Source: an uncultured Lachnospiraceae bacterium (GTDB taxonomy: Bacteria > Bacillota > Clostridia > Lachnospirales > Lachnospiraceae). Taken from it: 64,000 bases of DNA. Position numbers: made by a program. Positions 59,401 through 64,000 of the stretch are shown one piece after another (the stretch's first letter is position 1; every line of letters starts with the position of its first letter). The stretch covers positions 24,275 through 88,274 of the forward strand of contig URSA01000005.1 of NCBI GenBank assembly GCA_900550475.1. Direction: 5' to 3'.

Positions 59401-62400
59401 TCAGCCTTTACATGAAACCACTTCTGATGATATTCCTTATGTGAACATTTCCCTCGTTTTGTTGACGGTGAATATATCGCAAAAATGTTCATCGTGTTAA
59501 GATGCTTCGATGCTTTGGGAAAAATTAATTTGTCAAATACACGATTCCCGGCGTATACTTATGGAAATGAGAAGCTGCGCGCAGACACAAACCCGCTATG
59601 TGCAAAGGACGTGCGCAGAGATGGAGGAAAATATGGAAATCAAAGAGTTGGATCGGGAAACCTATGCGGGCAGAAAGTTCACCGCACGATACCGGACAAA
59701 CGGCTATTATGATATTTGTGCTTCCGAAAGCGGTTTTCAGATGAACTATGTAACACTGGAAGCACCCGCCGAGAGATCCTTTGATGATGAGTTTTTCGGC
59801 GAGTGGCTGGACAATCCTGTCGCCTTCGGCGCATTTGAAAACGAAAAACTGATCGGATATGTCGAAGGGACGCCGGAGGGCTGGAATAACCGTTTCCGAA
59901 TCAGCAATATTTGTATATTTGACAACGAAAACCGCCACAACGGAGTCGGGACACTGCTTATGGAAACCATCTTAAAAGCGGCAGACTCCTCCGGCGCACG
60001 GATGGTTGTTTTAGAAACACAGTCATGCAACGAAAATGCCATCGCATTTTATAAAAGGAACGGGTTTGAGATCATTGGATTTGACTTGTATTCCTATTCC
60101 AATACTGACCCCGAACGCCACGAAGTAAGGATTGAAATGGGAAAGAAGTTAAAATAGCTCACGCCGCCGGGCATCACGCAAAGCACTTTGGCAGGAAAGC
60201 TTCGATTTCCTCTATATACTCCTGCGCCCTCATGATGCAGGCAAGATGACCGCCCTTCATCGTTTTTACCTGCGGCTCCGTCATTGCCGCAACCAGTCTC
60301 TCCTGATCCTCCTTGGTAAAAATGTCCTGATCCGGCAATAACAACAACACCTTTCCCTTGAGGAATGCAAAGGTATCTTTTTCAAAGGGGCCGTACTTTC
60401 CTGCCAGTTCCCCCACCAGTCCTACCGCATGGATATACTTATCCTTATATGCCGGATCCGCCGTAATGGCATCAAAGAATGTCCTTCCGTAAATTTCTTC
60501 CTGCTCTCCCTCGCCCCGGAAATAACCGGTCACCATCTTCACCAGTCTCTGTTTCAGTTTTTCCCAGTTACTCATGCGCAGCTTCAGCTTAAGCAGGGGC
60601 GTCATCCATGCCATTTTTTTGATATTTCTCACATAATCGGAGTCAACGGTGAGCGTGGTAATCAAAACCATGCCACTGATGTTTTCCGGATATCTGTGCG
60701 CATAAAGCTGTGCCAGACATCCCCCGTCACTTCCCCCGATGATCGCAGGCTTCGCTAAGCCCAGCTCATTCAAAAGCGCATGCAGCCCCTCCACCATTTT
60801 CCGGTTGGTGTCCCACTCCAGGGGATACTCTATCATCAATGCACAATAGTTCTCTTGCAGAGCATCCACATACCTGATCCACATTTCCTGCATATCCAGA
60901 CCGTTCAAAAATACGACAGCCGGATTTTCCTTCTTTCCCGCCAGCACATATCGAACCGTCGCGCCGTCAATCACAATTTCCCGATAGGGATATTTACTGC
61001 TGAATATACTTAATTCCTCACCAAATGTCATTTTCTAAATCCTCTTTTCTGCGTCCGTCATCGGCGCTGTCTGTTTTTCGCCGAATTGCCTTCTATGAAT
61101 CCTGTCTACCGTCAAAGTTATTCGTTTTGGCTCAGGGAAAATGTATTGCTATGCTTAATTTCCTTCCGAGTGGTACTCCCGGAATCCTCTTTCTTCGTCT
61201 GCCATCAACGCTGTCTGTTTTTATTTGGGAAAATATGATGCCGGATATGCTTAATCCCTCGCCAAATCTTCTTTCCCGGAAATATAAAGTTCCAGCATCT
61301 TTAGCATCACTTCTATACTGTTATCCAACGAAGCCCCAATCATGGTATCCCGGCTTTCCCGCATCATATACATGGCTTTGACCAGATTCACAATCGTGCC
61401 CGCATCCACGGCTTCCCCCGCATCCGACAAGCAGTCCAGAAAATGCTGCACGGTGTGTACCGGCGTTGCGGTTTCAAACAGGTTCGCATCGGACATGTGC
61501 GTCTTCAACCACATCAGATCCTCCAAAGTCAGACCATTCAACAGATCATACTCACTGTTCATGTATTCTCTCAGAAAGCCTATAAATTCGTGGGTTGTCA
61601 TGCGTTCCCTGCCACCCGGATGCTTCTCAAACAGAAGCTGCGACTTCTCCTGCGCATATGCAAGAAGTGCCGGAATAAAAGCCTCTCTAGACTCAAAAAA
61701 ATGGTAAAAGCTTCCCTTGGCAATTCCGGCTGATGCCGCCAATTTGGAAACCGTCATCCCCTGCATGCCCTCGGATTTGCTCAGACGTATTCCCGCCCGA
61801 AACAATTCCCCCCGAATGCTTTTCTGTTGTTTGCTCGTAAATGCTGTCGGCATATCAATCTCTTTCTCCGTGACCGTTTTTTATATTTTGGTCATTGCAT
61901 ATTTCATAAGTTAGCATTAACTAACTCTCTTTGTCAAGAGGATGCCTGCTGTTTCGTCCCTTTTTCTCACAGTAAACAGGTCTCCGATTGTTTGACTCTG
62001 CATGATGTTTCCTGCATTCATCGCACTTTCCATGACGTTCACACTTTTTCCTTTTACATGGACAATTTTCATTGATTGCCATTCTTGCTCCCATTTTTAA
62101 TGGTCGTTCCTTTCCCAGTTTTATCGTTTTCGTTAAATCTAACGTTCCCATTCCCTCTGATTTATTGTCTCTGGCAAATCTGGTAGTTCCTTTCCTCCCG
62201 CTCTACCATCTCTGGCAAACCTGATACTTCCCTTTCCCCGCTTCACCGTCTTCGGCAAACTTGACGGTCACCGCCGATTGTCTCTATGGAAAATAAATCG
62301 CCTTTTCAGATCCCAATCTGCCCTTGAAATGATGAATATATGCACGCAAAAAGCCCGGATTGTATCCCCGCAGAAAAAAGTTCTCTTTCAGATCCCAATT

Positions 62401-64000
62401 TTTCGTGGTTTGTGGGATCTCATAACACATTTTTTCCTCGCAGGATACAATCCGGGCAAATTCTTCCAGTTATGTCAACCTATTTTCTTAAAATTGGGAT
62501 CTCAAGGACGCTTTTATCCTCCATAGATACAATCGAGGCAGTGCGGCATCTTTGACAATCCCTTTTCACTTCTTCGCGTCCAAAAGTACCACGCCCTGAG
62601 GCGGATTCTGGCTGATCGCACCTACAATAGGATGGGGCACATACGCCTCCTCAAGATAGGTGACCTCATCCCTTGTCAGGGACACATCAAAAGCTCCCAC
62701 CGCATCGGTAAGGTAGGATTCCTTCGTCGCGCCGATAATCGGCGCGGTCACTCCCTTCATCCATTGCCATGCAAGGGCGATCTGGGACATTTTACAGCCA
62801 TGTCGGTCGGCAAGCTCTGCAACGTGCTCCACAATGACCTTATCCTGCTGTTCCATGCGGTCGTACTTGCCCGCGCCACACGATCCGTTCTTCCGCGCAG
62901 GCTGCCTGACTCCCATGTCCTTCTTGCCAAATGCCCCGCTGCCAGTGGACTGTAAGGCATCAGGGATACACCCATCTGCCTGCAGATGGGAAGCAATTCT
63001 CTCTCGTCCCCACGGTAGATCAGATTATAATGATTTTCCATAACACTGAACGGCGTAAAACCGTGATCCCTTGCGGCAAGCTGCATATTGTAAAACTGAT
63101 AACCGTACATGGCGGAAGCGCCCAAAGCCCTCACCTTTCCCGCCTTCACCAGCTCATGCAGCGCCTCCATCGTCTCCTCTATGGGCGTGTCATAATCGAA
63201 CCGATGTATGATATAGATATCCAGATAGTCCGTCCCCAGACGTTTTAACGTGCCATCTATCTCGCACATGATCGCCGGGCGGGACAGCCTTCCTTCATTG
63301 AAATAGACCTTTGACGCAATGACAACCTGCTCTCTCGGGACAGTCTTTTTCAATGCGCGCCCCAGATACTCCTCGCTGGTTCCGGCAGAGTAGGTGTTTG
63401 CCGTGTCAAAAAAATGATGCCAAGCTCCAGCGCATGTCGGATCACTGTCCCGCTTCTCTCCTCGTCCAATGTCCAATCATGCATGGTGCCTGCCTTTCCG
63501 AAGTTCATACAGCCCACGCACAGCTTTGATACCTCAATTCCCGTATTGCCCAGCTTTTCATATTTCATAGCATAACTCCCTCCTTACCACGCACACTTTC
63601 GCCTCAAAAACAGACGATACCTTCGCGGCAGTCGCAACATTTTCTCCCCAATATTATCCCATACCGCCGCCTTTTCCGTCACTAGAACCCATTTTGCTCT
63701 TATCATATTGAAAAAAATACCGATATCTACTATAATGGAAGCAAACAAAGAAATGATTCTCCCCGGCGTGGTACGTCAGGAACGGAGGTTTTTATGAGTA
63801 TTACAATTCAAAGCAAAAACAATTATTCCTTTTTGTTTCAGAGTCTTGGCAGTTCAAAAGGCGGTGTTGCTTCCAATCTGAATTTCCTTTCCGATTACGC
63901 AAGCATCAAGAACGGCAGCTATGCCAAGCTGATGAAAGCATATTATGGCAAGAATAACAATGATGCCGTTTCTTCCGTTGCGGAGAAAACGAAAACCACC

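Follow-up and report, generated by a model that had tools for sequence, protein, structure and literature searches.

A previously undescribed intergenic repeat of four nested, inverted modules in an uncultured Lachnospiraceae lineage of the human gut

The two copies in the window and the module they share

We analyzed a stretch of 64,000 nucleotides (the window) from an uncultured Lachnospiraceae bacterium (contig URSA01000005.1 of assembly GCA_900550475.1, positions 24,275 to 88,274 of the forward strand), which contains two copies, A and B, of an intergenic element with a nested palindromic layout. Copy B lies between a putative gene for a small Cys-rich protein and a frameshifted aldo/keto reductase gene, the same flanking genes that the initial annotation had named, and copy A is located downstream of a tRNA-Thr gene (27035-27108) and its terminator. 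Copy B had been described as the second copy of a structured element with four helices, P0 to P3; the module, the profile and the paralogues presented below establish that it is a genuine one. The features of the two copies are listed here.

62271..62540, + strand (the canonical strand is the + strand of the window): element copy B, whole; a 10-paralogue profile gives 199 bits on the + strand and 101 bits on the - strand
~62275-62290 with 62520-62535: P0 of copy B
62278..62315, + strand: unit 1 of copy B, TTGTCTC-N24-GATCCCA; 5' strands of P0 and P1
62305-62317 with 62493-62505: P1 of copy B, 13 nt, 92% complementary
62318..62352, + strand: left spacer of copy B, copy-specific sequence of fixed length
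62353-62367 with 62443-62457: P2 of copy B, perfect 15-bp stem
62360..62397, + strand: unit 2 of copy B, TTGTATC-N24-GATCCCA; 5' strands of P2 and P3
62390-62397 (AGATCCCA) with 62413-62420 (TGGGATCT): P3 of copy B, 8 bp
62398..62412, + strand: central loop of copy B, 15 nt, T-rich, ATTTTTCGTGGTTTG
62413..62450, - strand: unit 3 of copy B, inverted; 3' strands of P3 and P2; T6 on the + strand
62458..62492, + strand: right spacer of copy B, copy-specific sequence of fixed length
62495..62532, - strand: unit 4 of copy B, inverted; 3' strands of P1 and P0
27321..27586, + strand: element copy A; all four unit middles have T6 on the + strand
27327-27364 (+), 27409-27445 (+), 27461-27498 (-) and 27544-27581 (-): units 1 to 4 of copy A

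All four helices are present in copy B where they had been placed, including the perfect 15-bp stem of P2. The 8-bp P3 also carries the compensatory change relative to copy A that had been noted, in that the pair adjoining GATC is G-C in copy A (GGATCC) and A-T in copy B (AGATCT). Beyond P0 of copy B, weaker complementarity extends to 62256 and 62554.

The helices result from a repeated module. Each copy consists of four modules of 37-38 nt of the type TTGTATC-N24-GATCCCA, with units 1 and 2 on the + strand and units 3 and 4 on the - strand. The order forward, forward, reverse, reverse constitutes a palindrome within a palindrome. The module is bipartite: it starts with ATTGTATC, followed by ~23 nt containing an A- or T-run, and then GATCCCAAT. 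The aligned units show no internal self-complementarity and contain two different boxes instead. P0 and P2 are therefore formed by the same box (ATTGTATC with GATACAAT), and P1 and P3 by the other one (GATCCCA with TGGGATC); GATC is present in every unit. Successive units start at distances of 82/53/82 nt (82/52/83 in copy A), the spacing between box starts is constant at 31, 51, 22, 51 and 31 nt, and copies A and B can be aligned without indels throughout the element. When the window was searched with TTGTMTC-N16-30-GATCCCA, eight matches were obtained, all of them within copies A and B, against 0.01 expected from shuffled sequences.

The surroundings of copy A contain two tRNA-Thr(GGT) genes (23033-23105 and 27035-27108, 66.1 bits each with Rfam), which flank a segment of ~4 kb encoding XRE-type regulators, an alpha/beta hydrolase and a small acylphosphatase-like open reading frame (ORF); copy A is located just past the second tRNA gene. 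The pair of tRNA-Thr genes could reflect a tRNA duplication or an old integration.

Conservation, pairing and polarity across the family

A scan of metagenome contigs with a three-box pattern, which required three of the eight boxes, resulted in 37 stretches, of which 19 contain true elements; all 19 originate from four human-gut assemblies and represent at least 10 paralogue families. Two loci, L050 and L053, contain the orthologues of copies A and B, respectively, and are ~98.4-98.5% identical to the window over ~12 kb. The eight further families are L029/48/57, L030/46/58, L032/56/38, L037, L047, L051/63, L055 and L060. The 10-paralogue profile detected exactly one element per locus, with scores of 186-235 bits for the canonical strand, compared with 56-101 bits for the opposite one. 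The neighbours are ordinary chromosomal genes, among them those for SpoIVB, an FAD oxidoreductase, a GH5 cellulase, a NUDIX hydrolase, a xanthine/uracil permease, D-Tyr-tRNA deacylase, glycogen phosphorylase, aconitase and a thioesterase. The comparison of gene neighbourhoods that the initial annotation had suggested covers at least 10 loci, with unrelated housekeeping genes. The phosphorylase has close homologues that carry the label Lachnospiraceae, and Candidatus Acetatifactor, at 87% identity, is the nearest one with a name.

We then considered whether the family corresponds to a known type of element. At the loci examined, no transposase or recombinase gene was found within 2.5 kb of the copies. 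Sensitive blastn searches of plasmids (with copies B, A and the L055 element) and of phages (with copy B) gave no match. Three pattern scans of viral contigs and a profile search of the fetched loci yielded no true copy, and a pattern scan of the GTDB species representatives gave nine chance matches and no true copy, an absence that may reflect representation or masking. A phage, plasmid or insertion sequence (IS) end was rejected because of the lack of matches in plasmids, phages and viral contigs; the IS or transposon end that would have undone the initial description was likewise not encountered. At the gathering threshold of Rfam 15, only tRNAs were detected in the whole window, and permissive scans of copies B and A and the L051 element gave only sub-threshold, inconsistent matches to generic hairpins; a known RNA family was therefore rejected. 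A CRISPR (clustered regularly interspaced short palindromic repeats) array does not apply because the units occur in both orientations, always as two plus two, and their middles differ. Inspection revealed no conserved ORF inside the element either, since the reading frame relative to the boxes shifts among paralogues, so that a conserved small ORF was rejected as well. The literature searched contained no description of such a repeat family in Lachnospiraceae. The family is a previously undescribed intergenic repeat of roughly 270 bp in an uncultured Lachnospiraceae lineage of the human gut.

Four contigs (L032, L047, L055 and L026) start or stop inside an element or within ~400 nt of one, which suggests that the palindromes break short-read assemblies.

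The paralogues are 51-70% identical overall and their 35-nt spacers 25-56% identical, that is, randomised for most pairs. Kept in essentially all copies are the eight boxes, a run of five to seven Ts in the middle of the unit, the T-rich loop and the distances between unit starts; the loop length of 15 nt is invariant in all paralogues. Because three of the eight boxes sufficed for a match to the search pattern, the manner of searching does not account for the conservation of the remaining boxes, of the runs or of the spacing. The similarity among paralogues is sharp-edged, beginning at ATTGTATC and ending at GATACAAT, i.e., at the outer boxes. Orthologous copies are 90-100% identical. Copy B is 99.9-100% identical across eight strain contigs, and a sister species with a TetR protein of 92% identity served for comparison: here the identity amounts to 95-97% for the element, ~90% for the TetR gene region and 30-70% for the tandem array beside copy B; the spacers of copy B differ by zero to one change. 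The combination of diverged paralogues that keep their boxes and spacing with high identity between orthologues shows that the copies are old, fixed in place and held by purifying selection.

RNAalifold analysis of the 10 paralogues recovered P0 to P3. Standard pairs are found in 92.3% of the cells, compared with 24-50% when the partners are slid by one to three columns, and ten pairs are altered on both sides. The covariation score was 0.173, as against 0.107 ± 0.012 for shuffled alignments, and none of 500 shuffles reached the observed value. The four helices that had been proposed from copies A and B are thus conserved across the family, demonstrating that pairing matters. Most of the covariation is confined to the variable extensions, which comprise the closing base pairs of P0 and of P3 and, at P2, the 5 bp on the outer side of the box. 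A single strand folds into one long hairpin, with P0 and P2 formed by the ATTGTATC boxes and P1 and P3 by the GATCCCA boxes. Because the arms between the helices are non-complementary (in the T-run segments only 10-30% of the cells could pair), the structure consists of four conserved helices separated by symmetric internal loops of ~20 x 20 and ~35 x 35 nt.

The family also has a strand polarity. When the copies were oriented by the T-rich loop, which is present in all 10, the T-runs were located on the same strand in 36 of the 40 unit middles. The AT skew ranges from -0.25 to -0.6 in the loop and the middles of units 1 to 3, is weak in unit 4 (-0.06) and about zero in the spacers. The T-runs face T-runs, and therefore the arms are not mirror images of each other. 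Copy B is the exception: unit 1 has an A-run and unit 2 an A6 in the middle, both atypical for the family, which results in four units of the same type and a true palindrome, and this is why its helices look lengthened. The polarity of copy B is accordingly half reversed, and both of its neighbouring genes are on the other strand. Folding energy was rejected as a way to choose the strand because both strands fold equally well. With gene orientation as a proxy for replication direction, the orientation of the elements appeared to have no consistent relation to replication.

The tandem array, the flanking genes and rearrangements at the element

The regions on both sides of copy B contain the following features.

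61921-62082, extendable to 62151, - strand: small Cys-rich ORF of 53-76 aa, CPCKRKKCERHGKCDECRKHH; no Pfam match
62101..62264, no strand assigned: degenerate 41-bp tandem array; core found by Tandem Repeats Finder at 62168-62264, with 2.4 copies and 78% matches
62566-63568, - strand: aldo/keto reductase gene, broken over three frames

Degenerate copies of the 41-bp repeat reach left to ~62101. According to the initial annotation, the 5' strand of P0 overlaps the last unit of the array, and the repeats and the element form one composite block. Neither view was supported. The array ends ~10 nt short of P0, and what it has in common with the element is a short motif, GTCTCT.GG.AAA of the repeat unit versus TGTCTCTATGGAAAA of unit 1. 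No other locus carries this array, its copy number is variable and it drifts faster than the element, and the composite block does not recur: the other paralogues have no array, or arrays that are unrelated in sequence, period and side. In the array beside copy B, an extra repeat unit of 39-41 nt (+39 nt) is present in L019 (~5700-5745, corresponding to ~62115 of the window), and ~98 nt of the array are missing in L065 and L067. The 41-bp array is therefore a strain-variable repeat that is not part of the conserved element. Unrelated degenerate arrays, with periods of 15 to 64 nt, adjoin the outer unit in at least five paralogues. Such arrays next to outer units fit slippage near a palindrome and not a composite functional unit, and the 41-bp array may thus be a by-product of local slippage rather than a working part.

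Two other explanations for the array were rejected. It does not consist of decayed units, as a profile built from 40 units had no match to the arrays at E <= 50. Neither does it resemble a type III toxin-antitoxin system, because the downstream gene on the minus strand is the Cys-rich ORF without a Pfam match and because array copy number and sequence drift freely.

A clean array is present on the 3' side (canonical strand) of the L060 element, at ~5600-5750. It starts 10 nt from the element, contains ~10 copies of the 15-nt CCAAGAAAGACCAGC with a super-period of 46 nt, and is far more regular than the array next to copy B.

The Cys-rich ORF (61917-62151 on the - strand) is partly deleted in L065 and L067. 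It overlaps with a 51-aa ORF that is read in a different frame and was picked by gene callers on several contigs; both are putative genes. The aldo/keto reductase appears as calls of 270 aa and 64 aa in further strains of this species (L019-L022) and has an internal deletion of ~580 bp in the sister species (L065-L067); this gene appears to be decaying in real time.

The element itself marks the breakpoints of small rearrangements. In L057 (~1250-1446) and L030 (4226-4411), exactly one 82-nt period has been lost independently, leaving three units; these losses are the result of recombination between units 1 and 2. In L058, the tip of unit 4 is missing together with 1.24 kb. In L029 (1702-2262), a 561-bp cassette encoding a double zinc-ribbon protein followed by a terminator is present exactly beside unit 1. 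The cassette is bounded by a 10-bp direct repeat, TTCCCATCAT (compare positions 4165-4177 of L048), and is absent in two other strains.

Possible origin and function, and comparison with known repeats

With inverted outer units, a length of ~270 bp and copies at 10 or more unrelated loci, the element has several characteristics of a miniature inverted-repeat transposable element (MITE). The sharp boundaries, the inverted ends and the dispersal to unrelated loci indicate a past spread resembling transposition. The copies are now fixed and syntenic over more than 30 assemblies of two species. The reading that we prefer, with a probability of roughly 40%, is that the element is an ancient MITE-like repeat that has been kept by selection and acts in cis as a transcribed long hairpin, the boxes of which are recognised by a factor. 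The family would have spread long ago in the manner of MITEs and is no longer visibly mobile. Transcription of a neighbouring gene would read through the element, which would then function in cis, as an extended RNA hairpin whose internal loops are rich in U, and the invariant box helices would provide the recognition sites for a putative sequence-specific factor. Boxes that are invariant and do not covary point to sequence-specific recognition rather than to structure alone. Flanking transcripts would probably be affected in their 3'-end formation, processing or stability.

Several observations weigh against this reading. The sample comprises 10 paralogue families, found with a pattern that itself fixed three of the eight boxes. 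Covariation is absent from the box cores, and P0 and P2, as well as P1 and P3, are identical in sequence. Both strands fold equally well, with z-scores of -6 to -9, and symmetric 20 x 20-nt internal loops with U-runs opposite U-runs are odd for an RNA. The canonical strand has 25 pairs of the G-U type versus 14 of the A-C type (p = 0.11), and the upstream neighbour reads into the canonical strand at seven of nine determinable loci; these trends favour a function of one strand and a link with transcription, but neither is significant by itself. No conserved promoter was found; a sigma-70 promoter was rejected, the only matches being TACAAT hexamers with weak, unconserved -35 hexamers. A consistent intrinsic terminator was rejected because the stem runs directly into the U-run in only about half of the copies: the distance from the inner hairpin to the T-run is 0-4 nt in five of 10 copies and 7-10 nt in the other five, and a simple terminator scan flagged nothing in copies A or B. 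As for the spread by transposition, inspection of the 10 paralogues revealed no direct repeat at the P0 boundaries that would represent a target-site duplication, and viral contigs, plasmids, phages and the fetched loci did not reveal an autonomous partner sharing its ends. A clean empty site was not found either, as the gaps between the phosphorylase and aconitase genes differ in gene content. Finally, spacers of fixed length but random sequence combined with invariant boxes are more typical of arrays of protein sites on double-stranded DNA than of RNA. Among other regulatory signals, a sigma-54-like GG-N10-GC in units 3 and 4 was rejected because, on inspection, it is present in only five of 10 copies; at the TetR locus, synteny is lost in more distant species, and no empty site was found there.

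This brings us to the main alternative, a serious one and only somewhat less probable than the preferred reading, in which the element is a nucleoprotein site on double-stranded DNA, the eight boxes being bound by one bipartite protein or by two proteins (for instance a recombinase, a transposase or an architectural nucleoid protein). The site would organise or mark the chromosome or serve as a docking site, and the hairpin would be incidental. Box cores that are invariant and free of covariation, and identical between P0 and P2 and between P1 and P3, would be expected of such a site. The same holds for the invariant spacing of box starts between randomised spacers: these distances are roughly in helical phase and may correspond to ~3, 5 and 2 turns, and the A- or T-run that lies centrally in every unit between the half-sites would permit bending. 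The GATC in every unit, the absence of a conserved promoter, and the order of two forward and two reverse units, which resembles transposon ends with two sites per end, also agree with this alternative. However, a two-fold complex predicts mirror-image arms, whereas the T-runs and loop are polar in nine of the 10 paralogues; covarying complementarity in the variable extension of P2 would have no role in a purely double-stranded site; and a recombinase or transposase gene is absent within 2.5 kb of the copies examined. Thus, a DNA site explains the invariant boxes and fixed spacing better than a transcribed hairpin, but not the polarity or the covariation.

It is unlikely that the element is a selfish MITE that is still mobile, with ends of the inverted repeat/direct repeat (IR/DR) type carrying two transposase sites each and boxes kept for transposition only. 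Besides the inverted ends, the sharp boundaries, the small size and the many unrelated loci, this would account for the deletions by recombination between units and the rearrangement breakpoints at the edges of the element, and for the phosphorylase-aconitase gap, where relatives with flanking genes of 82-85% identity lack the element that this lineage carries. But no pair of paralogues is more than 70% identical, orthologues aside, so that there has been no recent burst. In addition, every copy is fixed and syntenic in the more than 30 assemblies, a target-site duplication was not seen, plasmids, phages and viral contigs contain neither an autonomous partner nor a similar end, and neutral decay would have degraded the boxes in the same way as the spacers.

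A more speculative reading, which we consider improbable, is that of a host-maintained, sequence-addressed scaffold, in which two stacked modules, each composed of a box helix, a U-rich loop and a box helix, bind a dedicated protein and the spacers carry locus-specific information. The spacers are conserved between orthologues and invariant in length, but they lack complementarity to nearby sequences: complementarity to their own locus is not in excess over that to other loci. If this reading were true, the element would be a programmable RNA or single-stranded DNA element and not a decayed transposon.

Even less probable are structured small RNA genes that stand alone and act in trans, as a family in which every member has a promoter and a terminator of its own. 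The long, stable, conserved and polar fold and the copy-specific spacers kept between orthologues would suit such genes; against them, conservation begins exactly at P0 without a shared upstream promoter, the terminator is inconsistent, Rfam gives no match, the spacers are not complementary to their own loci, and at least 10 copies with unrelated spacers would be unusual for a trans-acting RNA. An invertible phase-variation switch (inverton) flipping between the nested inverted repeats is very improbable, and an active one was rejected: although these repeats enclose a segment of ~200 bp and the TACAAT hexamers resemble a -10 promoter element, the orientation of the element relative to its flanks is constant in every set of orthologous assemblies examined (16 assemblies for copy B, and also the groups of copy A, L029, L056, L051 and L030; assemblies report only the majority orientation), no invertase gene was found nearby, and polarity is conserved in nine of 10 paralogues.

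Compared with known systems, the element has most in common with interspersed intergenic palindromic repeats. The REP/BIME/REPIN sequences of Gammaproteobacteria are likewise present in many copies per genome, form hairpins from inverted pairs of a unit of 20-40 nt, are often co-transcribed with their neighbours and descend vertically. In REP sequences, however, the single unit already forms a small palindrome, starts with GTAG at its 5' end and is linked to a RAYT transposase gene. The unit described here is bipartite, with two boxes 24 nt apart, is not self-complementary and is arranged exactly as two plus two at 82/53/82 nt in a Firmicute host, and no RAYT (Y1 transposase) gene is present within 2.5 kb of the copies examined. 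ERIC (IRU) of Enterobacteria and the Correia elements of Neisseria are imperfect intergenic palindromes of 100-150 bp that are transcribed and conserved beyond neutral expectation. The role proposed for them is that of RNA hairpins in processing, stability or termination, and their transposase is unclear or lost. They are single and not nested palindromes without sequence similarity to the present family, which differs from them by its polar T-runs and four repeated modules; Correia elements, moreover, generate a TA target duplication and carry an IHF site.

The IR/DR ends of Tc1-like elements such as Sleeping Beauty (PMC5224488) and the multi-site ends of Mu, Tn7 and Tn552 also have two transposase-type sites per end, which are direct within an end and inverted between ends, so that a non-autonomous derivative would contain two forward and two reverse sites. 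The present family, in contrast, yielded neither a transposase nor an autonomous copy, and a target duplication, whether of TA or another sequence, was not found; its sites are bipartite and 38 nt long, and its copies are old and fixed. The BOX elements of Streptococcus pneumoniae are modular, non-coding intergenic repeats of a Firmicute with stable secondary structure, whose means of spread is also obscure. They are built from three modules (A, B and C) with a variable number of B, whereas the present element repeats a single module four times, always in the same palindromic order. For the 41-bp array only, the MIRU-type variable-number tandem repeats offer a parallel as intergenic tandem repeats of 40-50 bp with a strain-dependent copy number. 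This array is present at one locus only, and the association that it seems to have with a neighbouring palindrome has no counterpart in MIRUs. Its variation in copy number could aid strain typing of the lineage.

REP, ERIC, BOX and Correia elements are well known in Proteobacteria and a few pathogens, and the literature searched described none for the dominant Firmicutes of the gut. The regular architecture and the preservation in place make the present family a tractable case for studying RNA processing or stability, chromosome architecture or recombination. The kind of element, an interspersed intergenic palindromic repeat, is known, while its architecture and its host group are new to the resources searched.

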